Part shown: in pieces, positions 2,758 to 49,118 of the stretch
Layout of the letters: each line of letters opens with the position of its first letter
Numbering within the stretch: the stretch's first letter is position 1
Origin: a virus
Reading direction: 5' to 3' (one strand)
IMG/VR virus record: IMGVR_UViG_3300045988_182168
Coordinates: 1-53,677 of that record
DNA length: 53,677 bases
Position numbers and translations under genes: made by a program
Notes under the pieces: generated by a model
The model's database searches: none
The model's input: only the letters and a program-made list of their open reading frames with translations
Told to the model about the DNA's origin: nothing

Positions 2758-2853
2758 ATGTCATCAAATCGAAATTACAGTCCATTAACTATTAAATTAC
2801 TATTTGGATCTGCTGGTGGGCGTTGTTCGATGTGCAAAACAAAAATAGTCTAA
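2758..2853 (+). pseudogene. 5' fragment of the HNH gene in a different frame (MSSNRNYSPLTIKLLFGSAGGRCSMCKTKIV*)
   Basis: ATG 2758 opens a 31-codon frame. Its 'GGRCSMC' looks like the N-terminal Cys knuckle normally preceding the HNH core found in ORF 2823-3518. The frames overlap in the A-rich tract 2836-2850. Confidence 0.55.
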
Positions 2854-3518
2854 ATGCAACTGAAAATGATGGGGTTGCTCAAATAGGTGAAATAGCACAT
2901 ATTATTGGCTCAAGTGAATATGGACCAAGAGGTGATGGCAACTTTCCAGAAGACAAATTAGATGACTATGAAAATTTAATATTATTATGCCCCTCATGTC
3001 ACAAAAAAATTGATAAACAACCAAATTCTTATTCTCCATCCGGGTTACATGAAATAAAAAGTAATCATGAAAAATGGGTGGATGAACAGTTGGAAGTATC
3101 AAATCTTGAAATTTCTTCAAAAGAATTAGACCTAATAATTAAAAACATTTCTTCTGGAGATTATGAATCTTCATTTTCATTTGAAGAATTTGAGCATATT
3201 GATGTTTCAGATAAAATTGATAAAAATGATTTTAGTAATCAGGTTAAAAGGTTTTTAGATATAGGGCTTATGAAAACATATGAAGTTAAATCATTTGTAA
3301 CCGAGATGGATAAGTTAGATAAAAATTTTATCAATAGATTAAAATCATTTTTTAAAGTTAAGTATTTAGAACTTAAAGAAAAATATGAGGATAATGATGA
3401 AATATTTTTGGAATTATGGAATTATATAAAAAAAGATGCAAATTCATTTATAGAAGAAGCAGCGGCATTATCGGTATTATGTTATATGTTTGAATTATGT
3501 GAGGTTTTTGAAAAATGA
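2823..3518 (+). CDS. HNH nuclease with C-terminal helical domain (effector of ABC-3C-like module), apparently frameshifted at its 5' end
   Basis: 'GEIAHIIGSSEYGPRGD...YENLILLCPSCHKKID' HNH motif. The tracked start is a TTG. The stop overlaps the next gene's start (ATGA at 3515). Confidence 0.7.
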   Translation: MFDVQNKNSLNATENDGVAQIGEIAHIIGSSEYGPRGDGNFPEDKLDDYENLILLCPSCHKKIDKQPNSYSPSGLHEIKSNHEKWVDEQLEVSNLEISSKELDLIIKNISSGDYESSFSFEEFEHIDVSDKIDKNDFSNQVKRFLDIGLMKTYEVKSFVTEMDKLDKNFINRLKSFFKVKYLELKEKYEDNDEIFLELWNYIKKDANSFIEEAAALSVLCYMFELCEVFEK

Positions 3519-3748
3519 TTTTGCCAAACAAATTCCTAGAAGAAAAAGATTCATTATTATATGTTGGAGCATTATTGCTGGATAAATTAGATGTTCCCTC
3601 TTCTGTTTCAGAATTATGGAATCAAGTAAATGATAATAAATCTGTGAACAATTATGAGAGGTTTATTATTACTCTCGACATGTTATATGTTCTTAATTTA
3701 ATCGAACTCAAAAATGATAAAATTAGGAGAATTAATAATGATTCATGA
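3515..3748 (+). CDS. small helical middle component of ABC-3C-like module
   Basis: 77-aa ORF overlapping both neighbours. Size and position match ABC-3C middle components as I recall them. Confidence 0.55.
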   Translation: MILPNKFLEEKDSLLYVGALLLDKLDVPSSVSELWNQVNDNKSVNNYERFIITLDMLYVLNLIELKNDKIRRINNDS

Positions 3749-5444
3749 ATTATATGCTAATAAAAGTAGTTTTAAAAAGATACAGTTTAATAAAGGTATT
3801 AATATAATATTGGCAGAGGGTGATGATAATACTGAAAATTCTAGAAATGGACTTGGAAAAACTACATTAGTACATATAATTCATTTTTGCTTAGGCGGAA
3901 CTCCAAATAAAAAATATTTGCCTGAAGACACATTTAATGATTGGGAATTTACAATTAGCATAGATATATCTAATGAGAAAATTTATGCTAAGAGGTCATT
4001 TAATGAAAAATCAATTATTATTGTTGAAGGAAATTTTAGTAAGTTTCCTTTAAAACCTACTTACTCTGAAGAAAAAGAAATTTATTTTTATACTCTGAAT
4101 GAATGGAAAGAGGTTTTAGGAACTTCATTATTAGGTTTGAAAAATGAAAAGGAATTTAGATTTAAACCTACATTTAGGAAAGTGATTAGTTATTTTATAC
4201 GCAGAGATGAAGATATCAAGAAATCTCCTTTCAAAACAAGTTCTACACATAAAAACATTGATGTAATTGATTGTACAAGTTTTTGTGTGGGTCTTGATTG
4301 GAAATTAATGTCTAAATATAAGGAATATGGAGATGAAATAAAAAGATTAAATGAAAATTTTTCTAACTTAAAGAGTATTCATGGATCAAAAGGGCAGCTA
4401 GTTCCAGAAATGAATAGATTAAAGAAAGACCTAACTAAAATTAAAGAGGATTTAGATAATTACAAAGTTCATGAGTCTTATAGACAAATTGAAAAATCTG
4501 CAGATATATTAAGCAAAGAAATTCAAGAGTTGGTTGAAAAAACTATTTTTTTAAATAAAAAAATTGACATATATGAAGAGTCTATTAAAGAAGAAAATAT
4601 TGATGATATTAATGTAGAAGAGATATATAATGAAATAAATTTTTATTTTCCGGAAAATGTTAAAAAAACATTAAGAGAATCTAAAGAATTTCATAAAAAT
4701 ATAATCTTTAATAGAACTAATTTTTTAAAAACTGAAATCCAATCAATAAAAAATGATTTATCATTAATTAATCAGGAAATTGAAATTAAATCTGATAAAA
4801 AAGCTGGATATATGGATATTTTAAATAATTTTGGAGCTTTAAACGAATATAATAATATGCAAAAATATTATACTGAACAAAAAAGTGAATATGAGTTAAT
4901 TGTAAATATTATCAAGCAATTTGATGAAATTACTAATAAAAAAAATAAATTAAAAGTAAAATTATTAGAGTTAGAATCTAGATTTCAAATCAATTATGAT
5001 GAAAATATAAATCATTTAAATTCTTTAATCGATATTTTTAGTGATAATTCATCTTATTTATATGATGTTCCAGGAGATTTAATTATTGAATGTTCTGAAA
5101 AAGGATTTGAATACAATGTGGATATTCCTAGAATAAATAGTACTGGAAAAACTAAAATGATTGTCTTATGTTATGATTTAATGTTGTTAGAAAATTTTGT
5201 TGGTTATAATTACATAGATTTCTTAATTCATGATAGCAATATTTTTGATGGTGTTGATTCTAGACAATATGCTAGTGCTTTAAATTTAATTTATGAAAAA
5301 ACAACAAAATTTGATATGCAATACATATGTATGTTGAACTCTGATTCTATTCCAGACAATTTAAATTTCAATATTGAAGATCATGTTGTTTTAGAATTGA
5401 ATGACAATTCAATTGAAGGAACATTGTTGGGTTTTGAATTTTAA
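3738..5444 (+). CDS. coiled-coil ABC ATPase (DUF2326-like, ABC-3C ATPase)
   Basis: ATG 3738 after AGGAGA. Walker A 'NGLGKTTL', long heptad-rich middle region, C-terminal 'FLIHDSNIFDGVD' Walker B/D-loop. Confidence 0.75.
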   Translation: MIHELYANKSSFKKIQFNKGINIILAEGDDNTENSRNGLGKTTLVHIIHFCLGGTPNKKYLPEDTFNDWEFTISIDISNEKIYAKRSFNEKSIIIVEGNFSKFPLKPTYSEEKEIYFYTLNEWKEVLGTSLLGLKNEKEFRFKPTFRKVISYFIRRDEDIKKSPFKTSSTHKNIDVIDCTSFCVGLDWKLMSKYKEYGDEIKRLNENFSNLKSIHGSKGQLVPEMNRLKKDLTKIKEDLDNYKVHESYRQIEKSADILSKEIQELVEKTIFLNKKIDIYEESIKEENIDDINVEEIYNEINFYFPENVKKTLRESKEFHKNIIFNRTNFLKTEIQSIKNDLSLINQEIEIKSDKKAGYMDILNNFGALNEYNNMQKYYTEQKSEYELIVNIIKQFDEITNKKNKLKVKLLELESRFQINYDENINHLNSLIDIFSDNSSYLYDVPGDLIIECSEKGFEYNVDIPRINSTGKTKMIVLCYDLMLLENFVGYNYIDFLIHDSNIFDGVDSRQYASALNLIYEKTTKFDMQYICMLNSDSIPDNLNFNIEDHVVLELNDNSIEGTLLGFEF

Positions 5445-5535
5445 TACATATCTTTTTAATATGTTCTATAAATGCTCTTGATTTTTAGATATTGTCTTTT
5501 TTTATCACTTATTAATAACCCTTATTTTTTATTTT

Positions 5536-5570
5536 TTTTTCTATTTTTCCACTTTATATTATTGAAGAGG
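5536..5570. repeat. 35-bp direct repeat copy 1 (contains TATA-like TTTATATT)
   Basis: tttttctatttttccactttatattattgaagagg, identical to 6998-7032. Confidence 0.9.
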
Positions 5571-5636
5571 AAAAAAATTTTTTTCATAATTATATGTGGG
5601 AGGATATTATTGGATGCTAATACATTTTTTAAAAAC

Positions 5637-5762
5637 ATGAAACATGCAGAAATAGAGTGTCCTGTTTGTGAAAAACTGAAAAAAGATTGCAAAAAGGTTT
5701 ACTATGATGAGTGGCATGAGGAGTATGTTTGTAAAAAATGTGGATTAGTAATTAAAAAATAA
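5637..5762 (+). CDS. small zinc-ribbon protein
   Basis: 'CPVCEKL...CKKCGLVI' gives two CxxC knuckles. The 5' part of tracked ORF 5472-5762 is poly-Phe low complexity over the repeat, so ATG 5637 (or TTG 5610 after GGGAGG) is preferred. Confidence 0.45.
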   Translation: MKHAEIECPVCEKLKKDCKKVYYDEWHEEYVCKKCGLVIKK

Positions 5763-6220
5763 ATTAAGTAGAGTATTTATAAACTCCAGTTCATATTTTA
5801 ATATATATTCGCCTTTAAATTATTAAATCTTATAATTTCTACATTCAAATAAAAAAAAATACATGTTTATTTAGCTTCAATAAATAATTTATCCAAAATA
5901 TGAGATTATAAATTTTTTATTATCTCTCTATTAATCATTAGTAAAAAAATATTCAGTTTTTTTGGGTTTCCTCCAAAATAAAGTGTTAATCATAATTGTG
6001 GTAAGAATTTTAAACACGTTTAATTAATATTCTTTCAGTTGAATTTATGGAAAAATATTTTTATCTTCTTCAAAAAAAAGAGGCATGTATCTCAGTTTAG
6101 AATTAGTGTAAATCATGAAAAAGAGAAAAATGTTTGTAATAAAAAGTAGGATGGGGGATAAAAATTGGGATATTTTTTTCGTTATTTTTTTTTCTTTTTG
6201 ATTTACATTTTATAATAAAT

Positions 6221-6296: not shown

Positions 6297-6306
6297 ATCC
6301 AAATAT

Positions 6307-6381
6307 GGGTGGATAGTATCAATCTGGTAATATGTATGGCTCCAGACCATAGGATGCAGGTTCAAATACCTGTTTCACCCA
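6307..6381 (+). tRNA. tRNA-Trp (anticodon CCA), no encoded CCA end
   Basis: Hand fold: acceptor GGGTGGA/TTCACCC, D-stem GTAT/ATAT, anticodon stem TATGG/CCATA with loop CTCCAGA, T-stem GCAGG/CCTGT. The T-loop appears to be 8 nt with a 4-nt variable loop. Confidence 0.7.
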
Positions 6382-6412
6382 TTCAATAATTTTTTTTTTA
6401 GGAGATGAAAAA

Positions 6413-7312: not shown

Positions 7313-7864
7313 ATGGCAAGAAAAAATAAAGTAGAATCCAGCCCACATTATAATGAAATAATCAAACGATTATCATGTGGAGAATCTGGAAGAAGTGTTT
7401 CTCGTTGGCTGGAAAACACATATAATGAAAAGATTTCTTTTGCTGCTTTAAATAGATACAAATCAAAAAATATTAAAATAGAAGATAGAGTTGAAGCTGA
7501 ACTGAATAAAAGACAAGAACTTAAAAATAAAACGGAAAATGCAGTTCAAAGTCAAGCAGATAAAATTGAAGCTGCTGAAGACACTATGAGTATTGTTGCA
7601 CAAACTATTGCAGATAATATGGAGGGTGTTGCTAAAGTAGCTAGTGAATTACCAACTATTTTTTTGCGGGCTAAACAAAATGCTAGGGATCCAAATTCGA
7701 AAACTGAATGGAAAGATGTTGCAAATATTTCTATTCAAGCTAATAAGATATATAATGATTACTTCAAACATGAAGAAGATAATATTGAAATTAATATTAA
7801 TGAAGGGTTTGGAGAATTAGCAGATGCCATCAAAAAATCGAGGGAAATATATAAAGCCCATTAA
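7313..7864 (+). CDS. terminase small subunit (putative, HTH)
   Basis: Lies immediately upstream of, and overlaps, the large terminase gene. 'SGRSVSRWLENTY' is HTH-like, followed by a coiled-coil middle. Confidence 0.5.
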   Translation: MARKNKVESSPHYNEIIKRLSCGESGRSVSRWLENTYNEKISFAALNRYKSKNIKIEDRVEAELNKRQELKNKTENAVQSQADKIEAAEDTMSIVAQTIADNMEGVAKVASELPTIFLRAKQNARDPNSKTEWKDVANISIQANKIYNDYFKHEEDNIEININEGFGELADAIKKSREIYKAH

Positions 7865-9137
7865 AAGTTTTGAGTATGGTGTATTCAGTAAGAAAGCATT
7901 AGATTTTTTGGATAATAGTGATGTATTCCTGAACATTCTGCATGGGTCAGTAAGGTCAAGTAAAACAACCAATGCTAATGTCAGATGGTTAAACTTCCAA
8001 GCAAATAGCCCTCATGATAAATTTCTCCTGACAGGTAAAACAAGAGATACTATTGAACGGAATGTTATTGAAGATCTAATCAAAATGGTTCATGGTAAAT
8101 TATATTATGACTATGATAAATATGATGGTTACTTGGACATTGGAGATAAAAGAACTTATATTGTTGGATTCAATGATGAGGGAGCAACTGCTAGAATACA
8201 AGGTATGACTGTTGCAGGATGGTATGGTGATGAAGCTGCCACAGCACCAGAATCAGCCATCAAAATGGCAATGTCGAGGTGTAGTCTTTCAGGGGCACAA
8301 ATATTCTTGACAATGAACCCTGACAGTCCTTATCATTATATTTATAAACAATACATCAATAATCCTGAATTACGAAAGAAAGGTATTGCTAAAGTATGGC
8401 ATTTCACTCTAGAGGATAATCCGAACTTAACTCCAGGATATATTGATAATCTGAAAGCATTATACAGTGCAAGCAAGCTTCAATATGACAGATATATTCT
8501 TGGAAGATGGGTTATTGCTGAAGGAGCTATTTATGATAAATTTGTTGAATCTGAAAACACTTTCAGATATAGGCCTAAACTTCATGATATTAATATTTGC
8601 TGTGATTATGGAGTTAGCACAGTCACCACGTTTGGTGTAATGGGTATCAAGAGAGATGTTGTTGAAGGAAATTCATATTACTTGTTAGATGAAACATATT
8701 ATGATGCTGAAGTTGAAGGAGTTACTCAATCTGATGATGAAAGAGTGGATGATATTGTGACCTTACAAAACCAGTATAAACTTGATAGTAATAATACATT
8801 GTATTTACCTCACGATGCAGCATCATTAAAGACTGCCTGTGAAAAAGATAAAAGAATCAGGATGGAAGTTAAAACATACACTCCTGATGTTAATGCAGAT
8901 ATTGCAACAATACAAAGCCTCATAGCTACCCGTAGATTCAAGATACATGTGAACTGTAAGAACAGTATTGAACAAGCTCAAACTTACTGTTGGGATAAAC
9001 AATCCCAACAACGTGGAGAAGATAAACCATTAAAACAAGATGATCACTGTCCCGATATGTGGCGTGGTGGAATCTGTGGACCAATGAAAACAGCTAAAAA
9101 ACAAATTTATCATGCACCACGGAGAATTAAATTATGA
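7824..9137 (+). CDS. terL: terminase large subunit (PBSX/Terminase_3-like)
   Basis: Walker A-like 'HGSVRSSKTT', Walker B 'WYGDEAA', C-terminal nuclease-like region. Size and position fit. Confidence 0.85.
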   Translation: MPSKNRGKYIKPIKSFEYGVFSKKALDFLDNSDVFLNILHGSVRSSKTTNANVRWLNFQANSPHDKFLLTGKTRDTIERNVIEDLIKMVHGKLYYDYDKYDGYLDIGDKRTYIVGFNDEGATARIQGMTVAGWYGDEAATAPESAIKMAMSRCSLSGAQIFLTMNPDSPYHYIYKQYINNPELRKKGIAKVWHFTLEDNPNLTPGYIDNLKALYSASKLQYDRYILGRWVIAEGAIYDKFVESENTFRYRPKLHDINICCDYGVSTVTTFGVMGIKRDVVEGNSYYLLDETYYDAEVEGVTQSDDERVDDIVTLQNQYKLDSNNTLYLPHDAASLKTACEKDKRIRMEVKTYTPDVNADIATIQSLIATRRFKIHVNCKNSIEQAQTYCWDKQSQQRGEDKPLKQDDHCPDMWRGGICGPMKTAKKQIYHAPRRIKL

Positions 9138-10423
9138 ATTGGAAAAACAATAGAATAGTTAAAGGAATAAAGAATCTTCCAGCTATTCGTGAACCTAAAA
9201 GGTCTGAAGCAGACAAATTAAGATTAAGTCACCTTTGGGCACTACAACCAAGAGTAAAAGATATTGGTTTAAATATTGGAACATACTTTGAAGCAGGGGA
9301 TATGCCATGGGTAAGAGTTTGCAGAAGAGTCATAAAGAATAGAGTTATCTCCCTGGGTTATCAAGTTACTAATCCTGACGAATCATTCAATCATCCATCA
9401 ACTGTCAACTACTTAAATAATTTACTGAAAAATCCTATGGGAATATATGCGGGGGAATTCTTTGAAACATATATTACACGTATGTTAGATAGCTTCCTAG
9501 TTACGGGAGATGGTTTTGCACGTGTGCATTATAATGAAGTATTTGAGGGTATACCTGAAGGATTAGAATTCATTCCTTTTGAATGGATGATGTATGATTA
9601 TACAACTGACCAATGGGGTTTGAAATATAATAATGTTCGTTTTGAAAATGATGAGATAATTCATTTCCATGAACCGGGAATACGAGGGGAAAAATGGGGA
9701 ACTAGTCTCATTGATTCACTAGCTAGATATCTTGCTTTACAATTGTATGGTTTGAAATATAATACCAGCGTTTTTGAAAATAATGGTATTAATCCTAAAG
9801 CTGTGATGAATTATGATCTTAATATTGAATATGATGATTTATTGCGTGAGATTGAAAGATTAGAAAAGGATCGTAAGGAAAATCCTGACGGTGTTCTGAT
9901 TGTTCAAGGTGCTGAGTATATACAAACACAGACTAGTAATAAGGATATGCAATACATTGACTTGGAACACTTAGTGAGGGATATTACATTATCCATATAT
10001 GGAGTTACTCCTGCAGAAGCAGGAATTATCGAGTCAGGTAATCTTGGAGGAGGTACTGGTCAATCACAAAAAGAAACAGTGAAAGCAAATTTAAGTGGTT
10101 GGTTGAAATTATTTGAAGGTGCACACAACAAAGTCTTTGGCCGTTCAGGGTTTGAAGAACTATTTGGATTCACAGAGATGGACTTGGAAGACAAAGAAAA
10201 ACGAGCATCTATTGAAGATAAACAACTTAGAAATGGATCTACATTTGTTAATGAAATTCGTGCAGGTTATGGTCTTGACCCTGTTGATTGGGGGGATAGA
10301 CCATTATCTTATGCAGGTAATAATGGTTTAAATGAACTTAACTCTGAACCAGATGCTCAAAAACAATTACAAACTTATCGCAAAGCATTAACTATTGAAA
10401 GATTAAAGGCTGATTACCAATGA
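9134..10423 (+). CDS. portal protein
   Basis: 429 aa, ATGA-coupled to terL. Position and size typical of HK97/SPP1-type portals. Confidence 0.75.
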   Translation: MNWKNNRIVKGIKNLPAIREPKRSEADKLRLSHLWALQPRVKDIGLNIGTYFEAGDMPWVRVCRRVIKNRVISLGYQVTNPDESFNHPSTVNYLNNLLKNPMGIYAGEFFETYITRMLDSFLVTGDGFARVHYNEVFEGIPEGLEFIPFEWMMYDYTTDQWGLKYNNVRFENDEIIHFHEPGIRGEKWGTSLIDSLARYLALQLYGLKYNTSVFENNGINPKAVMNYDLNIEYDDLLREIERLEKDRKENPDGVLIVQGAEYIQTQTSNKDMQYIDLEHLVRDITLSIYGVTPAEAGIIESGNLGGGTGQSQKETVKANLSGWLKLFEGAHNKVFGRSGFEELFGFTEMDLEDKEKRASIEDKQLRNGSTFVNEIRAGYGLDPVDWGDRPLSYAGNNGLNELNSEPDAQKQLQTYRKALTIERLKADYQ

Positions 10424-11928
10424 CAACTGCGGCAAGTGAACATAGAATATGCACAAACAAACTTCTCATGGATATCATAGAGTTTGATAAAGCATTATTC
10501 GATACTTCTAATTTATCTGTTGACGAAATAAAATACTTCAACAGCATCATAGATGGATTTAATAATCAAACTCAATTCTATATTGATTGGTTAGATTCAG
10601 ATGAAGCACGAAGAATCTTCTATGAAAACGAACAATACAACGACCATACATTTGCTAAAATAGATGAACAGATTAAAGAAATAGTTCATGATACCAGTTT
10701 AAAAGCAGATGAAATCATATCACGTATCTATGATTCAGGATTACAGGCAGGTGCTGATGAGATAAAAAGAACCCGATACTATAACGATGCAACAAAATAT
10801 GGTCTACATTTTCTACAATCATATAACTTTGAATTAATCAGCAATGTTAATGATGATTTGAAAAACCATATACGGGAAGAAATATTCGCAGGTATTGCTG
10901 CTGGTGAAGGAATGCCGGAAGTAGCTAAGCGAATATTAGATGCTACTAATCATTCATTAACTGGTAAAACATTATCTGCTCGTCAAAGAGCTATGATGAT
11001 TGCTCGTACTGAATCAGCACGTGCAATGACACAAGGTCGTTTGCAGTCTTATGCTAATTATGGTGTACATGAGGTTAAGATTTTAACTGCGGGTGATGAT
11101 AATGTATGTGCTATTTGTCGAGAAGCAGAAACAAAGATTTATCTTATAGAGAATGCAGGTGATTTAGTACCTTTCCATCCATTATGCAGATGCTCCGTGA
11201 TGGCATATATAAGACATGGAATTCTAGTTAGAAGGCCATTAGAAAATCCTAAGTTTATGGATTGCACTCCGAATAATAAAAATGATAAAGTTGAAAGGCC
11301 AGAAATTAAATGGACAACAAAATCATTACGAAAACAATTAGAATCCATTGCAGATCCTGAAGATTTAGATAATTTAACAGATGAAGTCATGAAATATATG
11401 TATGGTCTGCAAAATAAAAATATGGAATATTTAAATGCAGTTGATGGGGAAGGTAATGTAATTTGCAATCAATTTACACAAAACAACATGGGAAGTGTAG
11501 ATTTATGTGAAAAAGCAAAATTAGTAAATAACTTATTTATGGTGATACATAATCATCCGGGTGGAAATCCGTATCACTCATTAGCAGATGTTGAAATGTT
11601 TACCCTTTATAATCTGAAGTATAGCATTTCATTTACTGAAAATAAAGGAATCAAAATTTTTAAAAATCAAAATTTCAAGAAATTTGATGATGATTCTGCA
11701 TATAAAATTAATAAAATATGGAAGGATAGTTATCAAGAAATAAAAGATGAATGTTATTTTGTACGTAAAAATGAGTTCAATAATGTAAAAAAATATTCTA
11801 CAAATAAAGCTAGGGATAATGCTATGATTATTGATGAATATTTCATTGAGAATTTATATCGTATTGTTAATACATCAAATAAACAATTTTCTAAATATCA
11901 TGTTGAAGTAAGCTATATCAATCCATAA
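10420..11928 (+). CDS. MuF/SPP1 gp7-like head morphogenesis protein fused to a C-terminal JAB/MPN (JAMM) domain
   Basis: 'ARTESARAMTQGR...VCAICRE...PFHPLCRCSV' MuF core. C-terminal 'HNHPGGNPYHSLAD' matches the HxHx7Sx2D JAMM motif exactly. Confidence 0.8.
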   Translation: MTTAASEHRICTNKLLMDIIEFDKALFDTSNLSVDEIKYFNSIIDGFNNQTQFYIDWLDSDEARRIFYENEQYNDHTFAKIDEQIKEIVHDTSLKADEIISRIYDSGLQAGADEIKRTRYYNDATKYGLHFLQSYNFELISNVNDDLKNHIREEIFAGIAAGEGMPEVAKRILDATNHSLTGKTLSARQRAMMIARTESARAMTQGRLQSYANYGVHEVKILTAGDDNVCAICREAETKIYLIENAGDLVPFHPLCRCSVMAYIRHGILVRRPLENPKFMDCTPNNKNDKVERPEIKWTTKSLRKQLESIADPEDLDNLTDEVMKYMYGLQNKNMEYLNAVDGEGNVICNQFTQNNMGSVDLCEKAKLVNNLFMVIHNHPGGNPYHSLADVEMFTLYNLKYSISFTENKGIKIFKNQNFKKFDDDSAYKINKIWKDSYQEIKDECYFVRKNEFNNVKKYSTNKARDNAMIIDEYFIENLYRIVNTSNKQFSKYHVEVSYINP

Positions 11929-11986
11929 TTATATATAATAATTGGTATAATACTTTAATTAAGTAATTAATATTTGAGGGATTGAT

Positions 11987-12166
11987 ATGAGTGGACCTTT
12001 TTATGATCTTTCAGTGACTGAATTGATGGCTTATGATATTACTTGGGATATGAGTACTACTGAAGAGCGTCATCAGCTTGAAGAACAAATTAAAGCTGAA
12101 GACCCTAAAAAATGGGAAGAATTCAAACGTGAAATGATTCTAATTTATGGATCTTTAGAATATTAA
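11987..12166 (+). CDS. small acidic hypothetical protein (59 aa)
   Basis: ATG 11987 after TGAGGG. Below the ORF-track cutoff, translated by hand. Confidence 0.35.
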   Translation: MSGPFYDLSVTELMAYDITWDMSTTEERHQLEEQIKAEDPKKWEEFKREMILIYGSLEY

Positions 12167-12172
12167 TTTTCT

Positions 12173-12358
12173 TTATTTTTTTTTGGATTTAATCATTTTT
12201 TTGCTTGTTCTTTTTCCTTTGGGATTTGGTTTGTAAGGATTTTGAACTTTTGGTTCTTTGACTGGCTTTTCTTGTTTTTCAGTCAAAATTATCACCTCCA
12301 TTTTATATTTTGTTATTTTAATTTTTTTATTTTCTAATCTATATAAACCATCTTTCAA
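12173..12358 (-). CDS. lysine-rich hypothetical protein (doubtful)
   Basis: 61-aa minus-strand ORF in a long non-coding gap. No convincing SD. Confidence 0.2.
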   Translation of the reverse strand: MKDGLYRLENKKIKITKYKMEVIILTEKQEKPVKEPKVQNPYKPNPKGKRTSKKMIKSKKK

Positions 12359-12372
12359 TTTTTTTTATCGTA

Positions 12373-12415
12373 TGGTGGAAATTATCTTGGCAGGGTTCGA
12401 TTCCCTGATCCACCA
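12373..12415 (+). other. tRNA-like minihelix (acceptor stem plus canonical T-arm, D and anticodon arms missing)
   Basis: TGGTGGA...TCCACCA acceptor pairing around CAGGG-TTCGATT-CCCTG. Confidence 0.5.
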
Positions 12416-12914
12416 CAAAAAAAATAAAATAATGTGTGAACTGAACTTTTTATAAATAGGAAAAAAAGGTTTTAAGACTGGTGTCTAAAACATATTTTCC
12501 CATTTCTTAAATAGTTAAAACAATATTTTAAGTACCTTCTTTCCCAGAGTAAACTGGGTTAACAAATCCTTTATACACCAGTTAACTTCTATCAGCTAAT
12601 AATTTTCCCCTTTTTTTGAAACACATAGTTTGGGAAAAAAACACCATAAAAATAATTTTGAGGTTTTAAAAGAAAAAAAAGAATATCCAATTTTTGTGCA
12701 TACAAACGAATTTTTTTTATATTCTTATGTAAATTAATTTATAAAAAAACTATCAATATTTTCTTTAATATAATCTCAAAATTATTTAATTCACTTCTTT
12801 TTTTTATTATCATCATGTGGGATTGCTACTTATTAAAAAAAATATTATATAAGGGTTTAAATCCCTAATCCCACTTCTCTAAAAAAAAATAATAATATTG
12901 TAGTTGAAATAATT

Positions 12915-13982
12915 ATGACAGTTAAAACTGAAGACAAGCTGCTATTCAAATGGTATGCTCCATCAACACATAAATCATATAATTTAAATGATGATGGAAC
13001 GTTAACCATAGAAGGAGTGGCATCTACAACAAATCGAGATTTAGAAGGAGATGTTATTCTTCAATCTGCAATTGATTCAATGAAGATTCAACTAACTACA
13101 ACTAGAAAAAATCTTCATGGGGATCACGAGTATACTCTCTTAAAAGGAATCCTTGGAGCTATTACTAAAGTTGTAGATTCAGATAATAATGTCTTGAAAA
13201 TCCGAGCCACAATCTTATCTAAATTTGCTCCTCTTATTAAGGAGATGTTAGACATTGGTGTGCAGCTTGGATTAAGTATAGGTGGTAGAATAAAAGACTA
13301 TGACCAAACCAATGATGGGTGGGAGATAAAGGATATTGACCTTTTTGAGATTAGTCTTACAGGCATGCCAGCTAACTATGACACATTCGGAACAGTCACC
13401 ACAGCTAAAAATGTGGATGTTGTTGAAACTAAATGTTTAGCTGGAGCATGCCATATTTTAAGAAAAAACATGGAGTCAAACAAAATGCCAGGAGAAAATA
13501 ATTCTCAGAACAATGGACCATATGTTACTGAAGAACAAGTTAAAAGTATCTGCAAAGATTTTATGGATGAATATCTTGCAGAAAACAAAGAAGAAATTCA
13601 AAGTACTGTGATTGAAGCAGTTAAAGCAGATATTGAAAGAATTATTGATGAAAAGATTAGAGAGTTAACTGAACCTCAACCTCCAGCAAACAATAACAAT
13701 AATGGAGACAATGTAGGGGAAAAAGCTCTTGTTGAAGAGTTAAAATCCTTAAAATCAGAACTTTTAGATGAAATCAATAAAAACAAATTCACTGATGAAG
13801 ATTTCCAAAAAGGATTAGCAGATTATATTAACAAAAATCGTAATCCGAACCCAACTCCAGCACCGCAAAACCACAGCGATGATGAAGGTGAAGTGAATAC
13901 AACTAAAACTTTCACTACTGAAGAAATCTTCAAAAACATTGGAGCTAATCAAAAATCCTCTGGATTATTATCCAGATTATGA
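12915..13982 (+). CDS. HK97-family prohead serine protease with C-terminal scaffold-like coiled coil
   Basis: 'TIEGVASTTNRDLEGDVI', 'LHGDHE', 'GLSIGG' and 'EISLTGMPAN' match the S78/U35 prohead protease pattern. Acidic helical C-terminal half. Confidence 0.85.
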   Translation: MTVKTEDKLLFKWYAPSTHKSYNLNDDGTLTIEGVASTTNRDLEGDVILQSAIDSMKIQLTTTRKNLHGDHEYTLLKGILGAITKVVDSDNNVLKIRATILSKFAPLIKEMLDIGVQLGLSIGGRIKDYDQTNDGWEIKDIDLFEISLTGMPANYDTFGTVTTAKNVDVVETKCLAGACHILRKNMESNKMPGENNSQNNGPYVTEEQVKSICKDFMDEYLAENKEEIQSTVIEAVKADIERIIDEKIRELTEPQPPANNNNNGDNVGEKALVEELKSLKSELLDEINKNKFTDEDFQKGLADYINKNRNPNPTPAPQNHSDDEGEVNTTKTFTTEEIFKNIGANQKSSGLLSRL

Positions 13983-14004
13983 ACAAACAAGGAGGAATAA
14001 ACAT

Positions 14005-15243
14005 ATGTCTGAAGAAATGACATTAAAAGATTTACAATCCAATTTCATGGATTTGAACAGTGGTATGCAAGAATTACAAAAAGCAATGCAAACAACAATG
14101 AATGCAAATGCAGTAATGCCTGTTGAATGGGATCCTGAACTCAAGAAAAGAGTATCATTACAAACCCCATATCTGGAATTCCTAAAAAGCCAAGGTTGTG
14201 TAAAATCAACAGCAAAAGTAAAAGTAGGGTACAAATTAAAAGAAAACAAAACCAGAACTAACTTCATGTTAGAAGATGATGAAATTCAATCTTACACCCC
14301 ATCTGACTTTGATAAAAGAGTAGCTTTCATGAAGATATTGCACTACAATATTAACATGGGAGATATTGCAGAAAAAGCAGCTGAATTTGATTTATTCAAA
14401 GATGACCTTGAAGATGGTTTAATTGATATGGCAAACACATTAGATTACACTTTACTTGAAGGAGCTGGTGAAGAAGAAACTAAAGATTTCAAAGGTTTAT
14501 TCAAAACTATCCACACTAACACATTTGACTTAGGAGGGGACTTATTAACTAAAGATGATATTGTTTCTATTGTTGAAGCTATCATTCAAGAAAATGGTTA
14601 TCCAACTGGATTAGTCGCTACTCCAGAAGTAGCAAATCAAATAAATGATTTGTACTTCCCAGGAACTGTTAAACCATTAGAATATGAATTAACTGCAGGA
14701 TACAAAGTAACTGGTATTTACACTGCAGCAGGAAACATCATTCCAATCATTGTTGATAGGCATGTTGACACTAGTAAAGGTGAAAAATTAGCGGTTGTTG
14801 ATACATCAAGTATTAAAGTACGCGAATTCCAACCTCCTACTGTTGTACCATTTGCTAAAACTAAATTAGCTACAAGTCAATCAATTATTCAAGTTATTAC
14901 TCAATATAATGATGCTGAATATAAAAATGGTATGATTACTGGTATTGGTCGTGATGAAGACAGAAAAACTAAAACAAAATTAGGTAACATTAACTTTAAC
15001 ATCATGGGCACTGATGGCAAACCGGTTAAAGGAGCTAAAGTCAGTTTTACTGATAAAAAGAACAATGTTTTCAAATCAGGAACTAGTAACAATCGTGGAT
15101 TAGCTGAAATGATTCAGGTACCATATGGAACATACAAGGTAGATTATGATACAATCCCATCTGGTTACACTAAAATTGATATTGCAGATTATGATGTATC
15201 TGCAGCTGAATCTAGAGTTAGCTTAATACTCACTAAAAACTAA
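14005..15243 (+). CDS. major capsid protein (HK97 fold inferred) with C-terminal Ig-like/CarboxypepD_reg-like domain
   Basis: ATG 14005 after AAGGAGGA. Follows the protease. The C-terminal ~85 aa 'GNINFNIMGTDGKPVKGAKVSF...VPYGTYKVDYDTIPSGYT' form a separate beta-sandwich-like module. Confidence 0.75.
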   Translation: MSEEMTLKDLQSNFMDLNSGMQELQKAMQTTMNANAVMPVEWDPELKKRVSLQTPYLEFLKSQGCVKSTAKVKVGYKLKENKTRTNFMLEDDEIQSYTPSDFDKRVAFMKILHYNINMGDIAEKAAEFDLFKDDLEDGLIDMANTLDYTLLEGAGEEETKDFKGLFKTIHTNTFDLGGDLLTKDDIVSIVEAIIQENGYPTGLVATPEVANQINDLYFPGTVKPLEYELTAGYKVTGIYTAAGNIIPIIVDRHVDTSKGEKLAVVDTSSIKVREFQPPTVVPFAKTKLATSQSIIQVITQYNDAEYKNGMITGIGRDEDRKTKTKLGNINFNIMGTDGKPVKGAKVSFTDKKNNVFKSGTSNNRGLAEMIQVPYGTYKVDYDTIPSGYTKIDIADYDVSAAESRVSLILTKN

Positions 15244-37953: not shown

Positions 37954-39057
37954 ATGGCAGAGATAAGAAAAACAAATATTTTTAAGTATTTAAAAACAAA
38001 ATATAACAATGTAGCGTCTATAGTTAAGATGAATGGTACTCAATCAGCAGGGAGTAGTGATTATATTGCAAGGGCAGATCATGTGCATCCTGTGGATACT
38101 TCAAGAGCAGCATCTAATCATAGTCATGGTAGTTTGGTTAATGATGGGGCATTGAACAGTGACATTACATCAGTTAACAAAGTTGCAGTAACGGATGCAA
38201 CAAATAAGTTGAAAACAATCAGTAAGTTACCATTGAATAACGTAACACATCAAGACATTTCAGGTAAAGCAAATGTAAATCATAGTCATGGTTCTGCATC
38301 TTCATCAGCAAATGGTTTTTTGTCTAAAGAGGATAAATCTAAACTTGATGGTATTGCTACAAACGCTAATAAAACAGTTGTTGATAGTTCATTGAGTAGT
38401 TCATCAACTAATCCTGTACAGAATAAAATCGTGACTAATGCGTTGAATGGTAAAGCTAACAGTAGTCACAGTCACAGTATCAGCAATATTACTAATCTTC
38501 AATCATCATTGGATAGTAAATCAGAAACAGGGCATACTCATGATGACCGTTATTATACTGAAACAGAAATGAATACTAAGTTGAATGGTAAAGCTAACAG
38601 TAGTCACAGTCACAGTATCAGCAATATTACTAATCTTCAATCATCATTGGATAGTAAATCAGAAACAGGGCATACTCATGATGACCGTTATTATACTGAA
38701 ACAGAAATGAATACTAAGTTGAATGGTAAAGCTAACAGTAGTCACACACATACTGCATCTCAAATATCTGACTTAACAGTATCAACACATATACTTGCAA
38801 ACGGAGCAAGACTATACAAATACGGAAAAATCGTATTGGCAGTATTTAATAACTACCAATATTCAGGAAAAACACCATATGTGTGGACAGATTTATTTAA
38901 TATACCTTCAGCTTACAGACCAATATCTACTGACAATATATATGGACATATGTTAGGTACAAATGGGCAAATTGTAGCAGGGTCTAATAAAATTGAACTA
39001 TATCCTCCACAATCAAGCGGGGGTCTTTTTGGACATATTCTTTGGGTAACATCTTAA
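37954..39057 (+). CDS. tail fibre protein with multiple HxH motifs and an internal perfect tandem duplication
   Basis: 'DHVHP', 'NHSHG' x2, 'SHSHS' x2, 'GHTHDD' x2, 'SHTHT'. Confidence 0.6.
   Translation: MAEIRKTNIFKYLKTKYNNVASIVKMNGTQSAGSSDYIARADHVHPVDTSRAASNHSHGSLVNDGALNSDITSVNKVAVTDATNKLKTISKLPLNNVTHQDISGKANVNHSHGSASSSANGFLSKEDKSKLDGIATNANKTVVDSSLSSSSTNPVQNKIVTNALNGKANSSHSHSISNITNLQSSLDSKSETGHTHDDRYYTETEMNTKLNGKANSSHSHSISNITNLQSSLDSKSETGHTHDDRYYTETEMNTKLNGKANSSHTHTASQISDLTVSTHILANGARLYKYGKIVLAVFNNYQYSGKTPYVWTDLFNIPSAYRPISTDNIYGHMLGTNGQIVAGSNKIELYPPQSSGGLFGHILWVTS
38443..38746 (+). repeat. 138-bp in-frame tandem repeat, 2.2 copies, 100 percent identical
   Basis: Units start at 38443, 38581 and 38719. 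Compared by eye base by base. Confidence 0.9.
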
Positions 39058-39091: not shown

Positions 39092-40156
39092 ATGTATATG
39101 AATAGAATTAAATATTTAGATGCGATAAAATTTATAGCTATTTTAAGTATTATATGTATTCATGTAGCTATTATTTGGCCTTATTCTGAAATTAAGGGTT
39201 ATAATATTTCAGGTTTTTCAGAATTTTGTCGTTTTGGTGTTCCTTTATTTTTAATGGTGAGTGGAGCTCTATTGCTTGGAAGAGAACATGATTTACGCTC
39301 TTTTTTAGAGAAAAGATTAACAAGAATTATAATTCCATTTATATTTTGGGCAATAATATTTGCAGTTTTCATTTTAATATTATTCTTTTCATTAAAGAAT
39401 AATTATTTGAATAATTATCCTTTAGAGTGGGGATGGTATTTTTGGATGGTTTTAGGAGCATATTTAACAATTCCTATTATTAATGAATTTATTGTTAATA
39501 AAGGGATGAGAGGAGCTAAATATTTTATTGTATTATTTATAATTTCATCATTATTTTATCAAATACTTATATTTTTCAACATATCTTCTTTTGTTGATTT
39601 AAGATTTTTTTTAGGTCCTATAAATTATATTGTTTTGGGGTTTTATCTTTCAAATAAAAAATTTTCTTTATCAACAAATAAAATTATTATTTTATCTTTG
39701 ATATTATTCATAATTACTAGTTTATGTAAAGTTGGTTTGAATTTAGTATCATGGGAGAATACTCATTTAATTATTAATGATAATAATTTATGTTTACTTT
39801 CATATTTAGATGTAAGTATTTTTGAGATTATACAGTCTTCAAGTATGTTTTTGATAATTAAGGGTTTGTATTCAAATGATAATGGTTTTCTTAAAAAGAT
39901 TAAAGATTCATTTTTAGAAAATAGTATTATTAAAAAGTTTATATTGTCTGTGAGTAAAGCTAGTTATGGTATGTATCTTTCACATGTGTTTTTTATCACT
40001 TTAGCAAATTATTATTTAGCAAATATTCCTCTTACAGGTACTCAAAATGCTTTATTGATTGTTGTATTATCAATAATAATCTTTTTAAGTTCATGGATTC
40101 TTATAGTGATTACAAGTAAAATTCATTTGATTAAAAAAGTATGTGGATATCATTAA
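39092..40156 (+). CDS. membrane acyltransferase family 3 (OafA/Oac-like)
   Basis: 'NRIKYLDAIKFIAILSIICIHV' N-terminal signature and about 10 hydrophobic segments over 354 aa. Confidence 0.7.
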   Translation: MYMNRIKYLDAIKFIAILSIICIHVAIIWPYSEIKGYNISGFSEFCRFGVPLFLMVSGALLLGREHDLRSFLEKRLTRIIIPFIFWAIIFAVFILILFFSLKNNYLNNYPLEWGWYFWMVLGAYLTIPIINEFIVNKGMRGAKYFIVLFIISSLFYQILIFFNISSFVDLRFFLGPINYIVLGFYLSNKKFSLSTNKIIILSLILFIITSLCKVGLNLVSWENTHLIINDNNLCLLSYLDVSIFEIIQSSSMFLIIKGLYSNDNGFLKKIKDSFLENSIIKKFILSVSKASYGMYLSHVFFITLANYYLANIPLTGTQNALLIVVLSIIIFLSSWILIVITSKIHLIKKVCGYH

Positions 40157-43090: not shown

Positions 43091-43291
43091 ATGCAGTACA
43101 AGGATAATGGTTTAATTTTTGGGGGGGATAAAATTTAAAACCTATTTTTGATATAATATTTAATCGAGTAGAATGTTTTAAGTATGTTATAATTAACTCA
43201 TTGTAGACACGACAGTAGACATATTATCACATACTTATCAAATGCACTCTACATCAAACAATATAAAAAGAGAAAAATAGATTTGATAAAT

Positions 43292-44446
43292 ATGAGAACC
43301 ACTGAAGAAATCCTAAATGAGATCCATTCTGTTAAAAATCATAAAAAAACAACACAGCACATTTACAAACATTCAATAAATAAATATTGTGAATTGAATA
43401 AGTTATCATTAGCCGAATTAATCGAAGAAGCAGAAAAAGAAGAAGAACAGGGTATACGATGGAAACATCGTACATTAAAAAGAAGATTATTAAATTTTCG
43501 CAAGTATTTGATGGATAATTATTATTATAACACTGTATCAAATACTTTCACACCAGTTCTTGTTGTATATAAATATTTTGAAATTGAAATACATGATCTG
43601 CCACGAATTGATAAAAAAAGTTATAATAATCCCAAACCTATCAGTTTTAAAGATTTACCTGATAAAGAAGTTATTCGTGAAGCAGTTAATATATGTACTT
43701 CTACCATGAAGGCTATTATATTATTCATGAGTAGTTCAGGTTGTGCCAGAAGAGAAACATTAAATTTAACTGTAATGGACTATATGAACGCAACTAAAGA
43801 ATACCATAATACAGACAATATTATGGAAATGATAGATGTGTTAAATAATATTGATAATGTTGTCCCTACTTTTAATATTTTAAGGCAAAAAACACAGAAA
43901 TATTATATTACATATTGCAGTCCAGAAGCAGTCACAGCTATAAATCATCACTTATTATCAAGACAAAATTTAACACCAGAATCCCAACTATTCAAAATAC
44001 ATGAAGACTACCTAAACCAACAATTCATTAAAATAAACAATGAATTAGGATTAGGAAAAGCAGGAAACTACAACAGATTCCGCAGCCACATGCTCAGAAA
44101 ATTCCACGCCTCAACACTATATAATGATGGTATGAGTCTGGACAAAGTAAATGACCTGCAAGGCAAATCAAAAAACAGTACTGATGAAGTATATTTCATG
44201 ACCAATCCTGCTGATTTAAAACAGGAATATATTCAACATTTACCAGCATTATCAATTAATACAGAAGTTGAAAAGATCACTGTTAAATCTCCAGAATTTT
44301 TAAAATTAGAAACAGAAAATCGTGAAAAAGATGAAAAAATCAAAGATTATGAAAAATTAATCTATGATATTGATGAAAGATTACGAAATATTGAGAAAAA
44401 AGAAGAAAATTTCAAAGAAAATGACTTTGAAAATTTATTAATTTAA
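43292..44446 (+). CDS. int: tyrosine recombinase / integrase
   Basis: 'GCARRETLNL' (Arg), 'RSHMLRKFHAS' (H-x-x-R...H), 'DEVYFM' (Tyr). The ATG at 43292 is in frame with the tracked TTG at 43283. Confidence 0.8.
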   Translation: MRTTEEILNEIHSVKNHKKTTQHIYKHSINKYCELNKLSLAELIEEAEKEEEQGIRWKHRTLKRRLLNFRKYLMDNYYYNTVSNTFTPVLVVYKYFEIEIHDLPRIDKKSYNNPKPISFKDLPDKEVIREAVNICTSTMKAIILFMSSSGCARRETLNLTVMDYMNATKEYHNTDNIMEMIDVLNNIDNVVPTFNILRQKTQKYYITYCSPEAVTAINHHLLSRQNLTPESQLFKIHEDYLNQQFIKINNELGLGKAGNYNRFRSHMLRKFHASTLYNDGMSLDKVNDLQGKSKNSTDEVYFMTNPADLKQEYIQHLPALSINTEVEKITVKSPEFLKLETENREKDEKIKDYEKLIYDIDERLRNIEKKEENFKENDFENLLI

Positions 44447-47906: not shown

Positions 47907-49118
47907 ATGGATGAAAATATACAAGATTTTCCAGAAAGTCCTTTTGAACCATGGAGACCAGTATCTCCAGATAAGTTTAAAGGAAGAAAAAAAGACATTA
48001 GTAAAATCACTAGATATTTACCAAAAGTTAAAAATCAAGGAACACCAGAACATTTTTTTATAACTGGAAAAAGAGGAATGGGTAAAACATCTTTTATAAA
48101 TTATGTTTCAAGAAGAGTGGAAGAAGATTTTCAAATGATTCCCATCCATATTAACAATAGTGGAGGGAAAACTATTGATGAGTTAATACAAAAGTTACTT
48201 GATGAATTATTAATGGAATTTAAAAAGGATTACTTAGGTAAAAGTATAATTGATAAGATTTTGAATAATATTAATGAATTCAAAGTTGCAGGGACTGGGG
48301 TGTCTTTAAAAGAAAATAATAGTATAATTAAGAATATTAAAAAGCATTTTGCAGATTTTTTAATAACTACTTGTAAAGAATTGCCTGAAGATTATGGGAT
48401 ATTTATAGTTATTGATGATCTTAATGGTTTATCTGAGAATGAAAAGTTTACAGATTGGTATAAAGGATTATTTGAAACATTAACTTTTAATGATTATCAT
48501 ATTCCAATCGTGTTTACTTTAATAAGTTATCCTCATGAATTTGACAAATTATGTTTAATTAATGAATCTTTTTCTAGAATGTTTCATTTAATAGAAATTG
48601 ATAACTTAGAAGATTATGATATTGAAGATTTTTTTAAAACTTCATTTAATAATGTGGGGATTGAGTTTGAAGATGGGTATAAATCTATAGAACCTATGGT
48701 TTATTTTTCATGGGGTATGCCTTTAATAATGCAACAAATAGGGGATTCTATTTTTTGGAATGCTCAAGATAATTTAAAAATAAATGAAGATGTGGTGTCT
48801 TTAGGTATTGTTGATGCAACTGATGAATTAGGGAAAAAACAATTAAAATCAAAATTAAATAAAATTAGGAGTGATACATATTTAGATATATTTCTTAAAT
48901 TGGGTGATAAAAGGTTAATGACTTTTAAAAAATCGGAGGTAAAAGATTTTTTGACAATTGATGAAAATAGAGTTTTCAATGATTTTTTAAAGAGAGCTAA
49001 AGAACTTGAGATAATAGAGTCTATTGGTAGAAATAATAGTGGGGAATATGGTTTTGTAAATAGATTATATTTCACATATTTCATGATGTTATCAAATGTT
49101 AAAAATCTAAAAAAATAG
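47907..49118 (+). CDS. AAA/STAND-like ATPase (archaeal ATPase / ORC-Cdc6-like) with C-terminal wHTH-like region
   Basis: 'FKGRKKDI...FFITGKRGMGKTSFINY' Walker A and 'IFIVIDDLNGL' Walker B. Confidence 0.7.
   Translation: MDENIQDFPESPFEPWRPVSPDKFKGRKKDISKITRYLPKVKNQGTPEHFFITGKRGMGKTSFINYVSRRVEEDFQMIPIHINNSGGKTIDELIQKLLDELLMEFKKDYLGKSIIDKILNNINEFKVAGTGVSLKENNSIIKNIKKHFADFLITTCKELPEDYGIFIVIDDLNGLSENEKFTDWYKGLFETLTFNDYHIPIVFTLISYPHEFDKLCLINESFSRMFHLIEIDNLEDYDIEDFFKTSFNNVGIEFEDGYKSIEPMVYFSWGMPLIMQQIGDSIFWNAQDNLKINEDVVSLGIVDATDELGKKQLKSKLNKIRSDTYLDIFLKLGDKRLMTFKKSEVKDFLTIDENRVFNDFLKRAKELEIIESIGRNNSGEYGFVNRLYFTYFMMLSNVKNLKK

Follow-up and report, generated by a model that had tools for sequence, protein, structure and literature searches.

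MuF-type minor head proteins of temperate phages can end in toxin domains of several kinds, namely nuclease, metallopeptidase, ADP-ribosyltransferase (ART) and RelA domains, more than half of them being nucleases (Jamet et al. 2017, PMC5576092), and temperate phages are known to bring enzymes into the cell together with their DNA by way of such MuF-anchored effectors. For the JAB-type protein RadC, Iyer et al. (2017, PMC5512222) have argued that it has no groove for the ubiquitin tail and that a role in nucleic-acid processing is possible. Here we describe a gene at 10420..11928 (+) of a viral stretch of 53,677 nucleotides (nt; IMG/VR record IMGVR_UViG_3300045988_182168, the whole of which is called the window hereafter), in which a MuF protein is fused to a divergent, RadC-like domain of JAB/MPN+ type, as the first-pass annotation of this DNA had proposed. 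The identities of the two domains, the conservation of the catalytic residues, the exchange of the C-terminal cassette between related viruses and the linkage of JAB genes to a small partner gene are directly supported by the observations given below. On balance we are inclined to see in the MuF-JAB gene a polymorphic effector of modular build, which has a JAB warhead and a cognate partner protein and belongs to a tailed virus whose hosts are methanogens of Methanobrevibacter type.

The open reading frame (ORF) at 10420..11928 encodes 502 amino acids (aa) from an ATG which overlaps the stop codon of the portal gene (ATGA), and is gene 3 of a TerL-portal-MuF head module in which Pfam identified TerL at 7824-9137 and the portal (PF04860) at 9134-10423. 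The MuF domain (PF04233) covers aa 149-261, or 10864..11202 (+), with E=2.8e-14 and 54.3 bits against a cut-off of 29.6; PHROG families of minor head and head morphogenesis proteins also match, and the MuF peptides ARTESARAMTQGR, VCAICRE and PFHPLCRCSV were found at aa 195, 229 and 251. The profile match above threshold and the position right after the portal identify the 502-aa protein as a minor head protein of MuF/SPP1-gp7 type, in which MuF is followed by a single effector domain. The two domains are joined by a linker of aa ~262-295 (11203..11304, +), marked by a predicted local distance difference test score (pLDDT) below 50 for aa 247-291 in the full-length AlphaFold2 (AF2) model. The linker holds a conserved P-x-E-N-P motif at aa 273-277, which is common to the relatives P0002, P0008 and P0010 and to the MuF protein of Caudoviricetes sp. 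vir080 described below.

Beyond this low-confidence linker lies the JAB-type domain, aa ~296-502 or 11305..11925 (+), as delimited by the family alignment, the AF2 model, HHalign and Foldseek matches in BFVD. It carries the JAMM motif HNHPGGNPYHSLAD at aa 377-390 of the 502-aa protein, nt 11548-11589 (+), with H377, H379, S387 and D390. This is exactly the motif that the first-pass annotation had read in a C-terminal region of ~170 aa; the motif stands, whereas the length was underestimated, the domain being about 205 aa. The pattern H.H.{7}S..D occurs a single time in the six-frame translation of the whole window, against a chance expectation of ~0.0013 per protein of the same size and composition (228 of 200,000 shuffled sequences contained it). 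The upstream JAMM glutamate, on which the earlier assignment had been made to depend, is present as Glu336 (11425..11427, +), at the start of strand b2 according to two alignments (A1 and A4) and the AF2 model.

An exhaustive HMMER search through 1.84e9 cluster representatives gave 24 hits, 20 of them credible, comprising five further MuF fusions of 500-560 aa (P0002, P0005, P0007, P0008 and P0010) and standalone proteins of ~185-270 aa; the remaining four (P0011, P0014, P0017 and P0023), which are long and repetitive, were set aside as spurious matches. The family to which the C-terminal ~205 aa belong is rare, at about 20 clusters among 1.8 billion proteins. When 5.8 billion proteins were searched by word index, the C-terminal 222 aa returned one 96%-identical fragment and nothing else, and the family profile returned 9 proteins only. 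Standalone members are assigned to phrog_13287, which is labelled function unknown. When 18 family sequences of 21-35% identity were aligned (A1), H377, H379 and D390 were the only invariant positions, and E336, N378, S387 and K400 were conserved in at least 90% of the sequences. All six MuF fusions keep the E, the HNH and the D, and Glu336 is invariant in alignment A4. Since the motif and its upstream Glu are kept across homologues of such low identity, the JAMM motif is not fortuitous.

To place the domain among the JAB families we compared it with profile libraries. Pfam RadC matched it at 14-15.3 bits (cut-off 22.1) and Prok-JAB at 12.1-13.5 bits (cut-off 25), over just ~20-30 residues round the JAMM motif, so that two of the models which the first-pass annotation had proposed for a search did match, yet below their curated thresholds. 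RadC was matched by 10 of the 18 family members in Pfam and by 8 of 18 in NCBIfam, and the NCBIfam model of the haloarchaeal desampylase was matched weakly by one of the 18 (E 0.017). A profile search of PDB gave 21 sub-threshold matches, of which 15 were JAB enzymes, including the top eight (AfJAMM, AMSH/sst2 and RadC), and the best of them were prokaryotic JAMM/MPN+ isopeptidases at E 0.17-0.2; single-sequence phmmer against PDB returned nothing relevant. HHalign of A1 against 11 RadC JAB domains (A2; E. coli YicR and ten phage RadC) reached a probability of 96.5% and E 7.6e-10, over the core V-x-L-P-x-E ... IHNHPSG-x-P-x-S-x-x-D, with which the family consensus IHNHPSxxPxxSxxD, likewise preceded by V-x-L-P-x-E, aligns column for column; with YicR alone the probability was 83%. 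An HHalign comparison with lambda gpK gave 26%, which is weak evidence on clade placement since the annotated K is N-terminally short.

Within A2 the residues D87, H88 and S98 are invariant, and the L-D-H motif and the Y-x-S-F C-terminus which follow helix a3 in RadC have no equivalent in our family, where K400-Y401 is found instead. The 'KY' strand after helix a3 resembles that of AfJAMM, and the profile alignment to AfJAMM runs through helix a3 and this strand. Because the L-D-H motif and the RadC C-terminus are absent and the Pfam score stays at 15.3 bits against 22.1, we do not file the domain as a RadC member; by its sequence it appears to be a separate, uncurated JAB family, whose homology to the JAB superfamily is well supported at the level of profiles.

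The AF2 model of the C-terminal domain alone was of high confidence (pLDDT 92.1; predicted template modelling score 0.89). Its elements are predicted to run in the order two helices, strand, strand, short helix, strand, helix, two strands, four-helix bundle and final strand, the core a-b-b-b-a-b-b being the JAB element order. The first strand (model residues 57-61) begins just after E336, the third strand ends with the HxH and the next helix starts with the S..D; the four-helix bundle, which is specific to the family, occupies aa 424-493 (nt 11689-11898) and precedes the final strand. Foldseek against BFVD matched uncharacterised phage proteins of ~230 aa (E down to 6e-7), the C-termini of phage 'minor capsid proteins' of 520-630 aa (E 5e-5 to 2e-4), and phage models annotated RadC/JAB/MPN (probability 0.90-0.97, target template modelling (TM) score up to 0.57). 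The structure prediction which had been suggested as a check came out favourably in its element order and in the phage RadC/JAB/MPN models that it matched, but not with respect to solved JAB structures, as discussed below; in PDB the best Foldseek matches were of deaminase fold, at E about 2 and low TM (<=0.4), and were non-significant. The JAB fold, as modelled, is supported only indirectly.

The most direct evidence on the nature of this C-terminus came from near-identical viruses. As observed with blastn, two IMG/VR sequences, L031 (IMGVR_UViG_3300045988_181258) and L032, match the window over 7420-11226 (~99% identity) and again from 12267 onward (97-98%), while the 1,040-bp interval between, 11227-12266, is replaced in both by 2.15 kb encoding a C-terminus with a HEMAH (HExxH) motif, a 179-aa ORF and a 180-aa membrane ORF. 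The exchangeable cassette of the window, 11227..12266 (+), comprises the JAB-coding 3' part of the MuF gene, a gene for a 59-aa protein and about 100 bp, and its left breakpoint falls between codons 269 and 270 (nt 11226/11227), just before the P-x-E-N-P linker. The HEMAH domain of L031 (allele at 3808-5959) gave weak metallopeptidase matches only (DUF6782/BSP). At a locus in a metagenome-assembled genome of Methanobrevibacter sp. RGIG3316 (L028, 2995-5039) the MuF protein is 71% identical, ends in a different HExxH C-terminus (HEMGH) and is followed by a 103-aa ORF. Judging from these motifs, the HEMAH and HEMGH C-termini are putative zincin metallopeptidases, and the 179-aa and 103-aa ORFs after them are putative immunity genes. 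It may be noted that L031 and L028 share the 180-aa membrane protein, which the window lacks.

Similar observations were made with more distant relatives. The nearest deposited virus, Caudoviricetes sp. vir080 (host Methanobacteriales, human gut), matches at 35% identity over aa 5-286 only, and its MuF protein ends in an ART domain (PF03496, ADPrib_exo_Tox, E 3.6e-11); yet in their MuF parts vir080 has 54% identity with P0007 and 49% with P0008, both of them JAB-bearing, against 36% with the window. P0005, by contrast, has an unrelated N-terminus and a JAB domain which is 33% identical. The relationships of the MuF N-termini and of the C-termini are incongruent among the relatives, and the ORF that follows the MuF gene varies with the C-terminal domain, encoding 59-63 aa after JAB, 179 or 103 aa after HExxH and 128 aa after ART. 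Because flanks of ~99% identity carry a HExxH domain at this place and vir080 carries an ART, the C-terminus is not a conserved structural part of MuF but a variable one of effector type, as had been suspected from the sequence alone. The exchange of the JAB domain and the 59-aa gene as one unit marks a putative injected effector and not a capsid building block. The envelopes of three PHROG MuF families (phrog_115, phrog_595 and phrog_4728) reach aa ~480 and had hinted at a C-terminus conserved along with MuF, which was rejected as a general statement in view of the cassette swap; many phage 'minor capsid proteins' in BFVD nevertheless have the same C-terminal fold by Foldseek.

About 100 bp past the right breakpoint, where the conserved DNA has just resumed, a tRNA-like minihelix was noticed at 12373-12415; a weaker one lies at 12817-12875. 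The former combines an acceptor stem (TGGTGGA/TCCACCA) with a T-arm (CAGGG-TTCGATT-CCCTG) and is devoid of D and anticodon arms, and the ~60 nt round it (12364-12422) are 90% identical in L028, where the flanks are just ~74% identical. Rfam gave sub-threshold mascRNA, tRNA and tmRNA matches only in this region, and the fold z-scores were -1.6 and -2.5. Possible roles are those of a signal for transcript processing, a hotspot of recombination or an att-like remnant.

The 59-aa partner gene of the window lies at 11987..12166 (+), and the linkage of its family to JAB genes was seen with a profile. An ORF of 59-63 aa stands directly downstream in all five other MuF-JAB loci, and a profile of these small ORFs matched, in a set of 3,427 ORFs, ORFs flanking standalone JAB genes in two further loci (L023 and L024, E 1e-8 to 2e-6) and reached a third (L002) after iteration. 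Members of the family were recorded at 4207-4392 and 6615-6833 of L023, 7761-7949 and 9416-9628 of L024 and 10255-10461 of L002, in addition to the window (11987-12166). They are 54-67 aa long and apparently helical, they adjoin JAB-family genes in every case found, and in most of them F-D-G-G-Y-G stands at the N-terminus, together with a helical segment of the form K-x-E-D-P-x-x-[YW]-x-E-[FY]. The profile found no homologue in the ART-bearing vir080 locus or in Dorea phage DO134P1, and the small proteins had no family match in Pfam or PHROG. The 59-aa protein is a putative immunity protein, inhibitor or adaptor for the JAB domain, and the partner family may consist of inhibitors or pseudo-substrates.

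Standalone JAB genes occur as two or three tandem paralogues interleaved with small partner genes, on unrelated phage contigs of ~37% G+C (L023, 2057-6836; L024, 7761-10335; L002, 7977-13741); one such locus adjoins a standalone ADP-ribosyltransferase, and one paralogue (L002, 13016-13738) has lost the HxH motif. With their tandem paralogues and their ADP-ribosyltransferase neighbour, the standalone genes look like effectors themselves. Furthermore, the cultured Dorea phage DO134P1 encodes gp13 (OP172779), annotated as a hypothetical protein, which has 502 aa, is encoded after an SPP1-type portal and joins MuF (Pfam 2e-14) to a C-terminal domain of the JAB family (HHalign 93.6%; motif HNHPSGGSFSFTD). 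The MuF-JAB architecture is not limited to archaeal viruses, being present in this bacterial phage. Two genes after its MuF-JAB gene, inside the head module, DO134P1 has a Tad2-like gene (Thoeris anti-defence 2; PF11195, E 3.5e-25; L025, 5518-6012), which suggests that the region after MuF is a hotspot for accessory or anti-defence genes. Megablast of 20 kb of the window against the INPHARED phages and tblastn of P0022 against phages gave no match. A 5.5-kb contig (L026, CAKOYB010000022.1) with a 99%-identical MuF-JAB copy is filed in a metagenome-assembled genome from Hadza gut labelled 'uncultured Clostridia bacterium', and since all other relatives point to Methanobrevibacter/Methanobacteriales this label is probably a binning error.

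If the MuF-JAB gene is indeed the effector we favour, it might act as follows. By analogy with characterised MuF proteins, a few copies of the MuF part (aa 1-~270) would be packaged at the portal and would leave the capsid together with the DNA, and the enzyme, made beforehand, would enter the host cell at infection. There aa ~296-502, by their intact catalytic residues a candidate divergent JAB/MPN+ zinc hydrolase, would attack a target belonging to the host or to its defences, the likeliest reaction being hydrolysis of a peptide or isopeptide bond within a protein. We lean to hydrolysis of such bonds because the characterised JAB enzymes are all peptidases and the warheads of the sister viruses modify proteins. 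The small partner would bind the JAB domain and keep it harmless, or escort it, in the cell which produces virions or carries the provirus; the window encodes an integrase at 43283-44446, from which we take the virus to be temperate. Recombination swaps the JAB and 59-aa cassette for other pairs of warhead and partner, with a putative HExxH metallopeptidase or an ADP-ribosyltransferase. It is in the steps of packaging and ejection, catalytic activity, substrate class and partner role that we infer beyond the gene and domain data.

Several observations weigh against this interpretation or parts of it. Every JAB and RadC match in Pfam and NCBIfam is below its curated threshold (12-15 bits against 22-25), the HHalign match to RadC spans 47 core columns only, and among the 50 Foldseek matches listed for PDB there was no solved JAB structure at E <=10. 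The full-length AF2 model (pLDDT 58.7) is too poor for domain packing or a fold search and does not resolve how the predicted MuF and JAB domains relate to each other. The 59-aa protein of the window itself lacks the FDGGYG motif of most of its family. As for the class of the substrate, the genes round the standalone relatives include ParB_N, DNA methylase and radical-SAM genes, and the data are also compatible with nucleic acids as substrates, as predicted for RadC-type JAB domains (Iyer et al. 2017, PMC5512222).

This last point leads to the reading in which the injected domain behaves like RadC and acts on nucleic acids or nucleotides, as a nuclease, an end-processing enzyme or a hydrolase of signal nucleotides, and not on proteins; we hold it to be rather unlikely, though deserving of attention. 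It would explain the RadC-type HNHPSG signature with the preceding V-x-[VL]-P-x-E helix and the HHalign probability of 96.5%, and it accords with the prediction that RadC is a nucleic-acid-processing enzyme (Iyer et al. 2017, PMC5512222) and with the predominance of nucleases among known MuF toxins (Jamet et al. 2017, PMC5576092). The neighbours of the standalone genes, to which Metallophos and ASCH genes also belong, point the same way, and nucleotide and nucleic-acid deaminases gave the sole fold hints in PDB, although these were non-significant (E about 2 or more, TM <=0.4). The L-D-H motif after helix a3, invariant in RadC, is nevertheless absent from the family, and we know of no RadC or other JAB protein for which nuclease activity has been demonstrated. 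To our knowledge, the JAB/MPN+ enzymes with a characterised biochemistry are without exception peptidases or isopeptidases, which act at the C-terminus of a ubiquitin-like (Ubl) or sulfur-carrier protein. This favours another reading, raised already in the first-pass annotation, in which the domain is an injected isopeptidase resembling deubiquitinases that strips Ubl modifiers of the small archaeal modifier protein (SAMP), Bil or CBASS-Cap2 type and so disarms host immunity. AfJAMM and AMSH/sst2 stand at the top of the PDB profile matches, the KY strand is AfJAMM-like, one family member weakly matches the desampylase model (E 0.017), the F-D-G-G-Y-G motif of most partners could mimic a Gly-Gly tail, and the alternative warheads of the sister viruses are protein-modifying enzymes. 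We still regard it as unlikely: RadC, which is not known to deconjugate, and not Cap3, BilC or the desampylase, is nearest by every sequence method, and RadC is argued to lack the ubiquitin-tail groove (Iyer et al. 2017, PMC5512222); the ORFs scanned in the window include no gene for Ubl, E1 or E2, and the partner of the window lacks the GG motif; the same architecture in the Dorea phage, a phage of bacteria, removes the tie to archaeal SAMPylation; and our literature searches found no phage JAB anti-Ubl factor. Were a Ubl conjugate the substrate, it would point to Ubl-based immunity in methanogens. A more specific version, which we find quite improbable, takes the JAB domain and the ~60-aa partner as a pair of deconjugase and pseudo-substrate, in which the partner fills the Gly-Gly groove until packaging and the targets are conjugates with a C-terminal glycine (SAMP, Bil or CBASS-Cap2 type) on viral or immune proteins. 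If true, no anti-Ubl counter-defence packaged in advance would have come before it, and one would have to reckon with Ubl-based immunity against viruses in gut methanogens and in Firmicutes.

Two further readings give the domain no part in the host. In one of them, which the first-pass annotation had also entertained, it is a morphogenetic protease which processes a virion protein (MuF, scaffold or portal) in head maturation. The gene does lie in the head module, and PHROG gives the label 'head maturation protease' to some of its MuF families (phrog_595), but this label also falls on the ART-bearing protein of vir080 and accordingly reflects the MuF part. Viruses with ~99% identical flanks do without the JAB domain and have unrelated domains in its place, so it is dispensable; a canonical S78 prohead protease, found by Pfam, is encoded separately at 12915-13982; and the standalone homologues lie outside structural modules, in tandem paralogue arrays. 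We consider processing of a virion protein very improbable. In the other, to which we give next to no credence, the motif is fortuitous or the region is a non-catalytic structural extension of MuF. That no curated JAB model was matched at threshold and no solved JAB structure was matched would fit it, but H377, H379 and D390 of the motif are the sole invariant positions across 18 homologues, HHalign to RadC reached 96.5%, the chance expectation for the motif is 0.0013 per protein, and the domain is found also standalone and exchanged between MuF scaffolds. We proceed with the reading of the gene as an effector whose JAB warhead and cognate partner are exchanged together.

A few other features of the head module and the window may be recorded. 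The SU10-type major capsid protein, identified by Pfam at 13939-15243, has its capsid domain and a SpaA/prealbumin-like (CarboxypepD_reg-like) domain in one 434-aa frame, the longest ORF, which starts with TTG and overlaps the protease gene; in L010 (8957-10214) and L011 the two parts are called as separate genes of 323 aa and 99 aa, and this could reflect a fusion, a frameshift or a difference in gene calling. Upstream of the head module an ABC-three-component-like pair occupies 2823-5444; its first gene (2823-3518) encodes an HNH nuclease with a CTD10/CTD11 domain and its second (3714-5444) a DUF2326/AAA_23 ATPase. The pair is probably a defence system, which either the provirus or its flank carries. 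At 6306-6382 there follows a tRNA-Trp gene. In the right part of the window a phage-tail-repeat protein (37954-39057) and an Acyl_transf_3 membrane acyltransferase (39092-40156) precede the integrase, and beyond it are an AAA_16/KAP-type ATPase (47907-49118) and an IS240-type DDE transposase (49677-50894); this part may be host or island DNA.

The present case brings a MuF effector system to viruses of human and ruminant gut methanogens, and the swap of its cassette is cleanly resolved, the genomes being ~99% identical. Of the prokaryotic domains to which no activity has been assigned, those of RadC-like JAB type count among the most widespread, and an exchangeable effector with a partner protein offers a tractable handle on them. 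Literature searches combining MuF with JAB, RadC with phage, and phage JAB with anti-defence found no prior description of a MuF-JAB fusion, the methanogen-virus papers checked do not mention one, and JAB and RadC are not named in the main text of Jamet et al. 2017 (PMC5576092) or in that part of its supplements which we consulted.

Compared with known systems, the JAB domain shares with the JAMM/MPN+ isopeptidases (AfJAMM, 1oi0; the HvJAMM1 desampylase; CBASS Cap3; BilC; AMSH) the predicted catalytic constellation and the order of the core secondary structure, but it has no significant sequence or fold match to them, and it is fused to a capsid protein instead of lying in a conjugation operon with Ubl, E1 or E2 genes. 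To RadC (PF04002; E. coli YicR; PDB 2qlc) it is similar in the E...H-N-H-P-S-G-x3-P-S-x2-D signature and the V-x-V-x-P-x-E helix; it differs in lacking the L-D-H motif, the G-x-Y-x-S-F C-terminus and the helix-hairpin-helix (HhH) N-terminal domain, and in adding the KY strand, the four-helix bundle and two N-terminal helices. The gp13 protein of Dorea phage DO134P1 is alike in its 502 aa, its place after the portal and its MuF and JAB-family parts, and differs in its bacterial host (Firmicutes), its SPP1-type portal, a JAB loop shorter by one residue and the lack of a detectable homologue of the 59-aa partner. In polyvalent proteins (Iyer et al. 2017, PMC5512222) a single polypeptide unites several effector domains, whereas the protein of the window has one after MuF. 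The closest likeness is with the MuF polymorphic toxins (PMC5576092, PMC5512222), from which the gene departs in the JAB type of its warhead and in the archaeal host (Methanobrevibacter/Methanobacteriales), and with which it has in common the MuF gene after the portal, a variable and exchanged enzymatic C-terminus, a temperate virus, and a small downstream gene, putatively for immunity, which co-varies with the enzymatic domain; the ART and HExxH sister alleles are classic MuF toxin types. The paradigm of the MuF effector itself is already known, and what is new is the family of JAB warheads together with its family of partners, in archaeal and some bacterial viruses.

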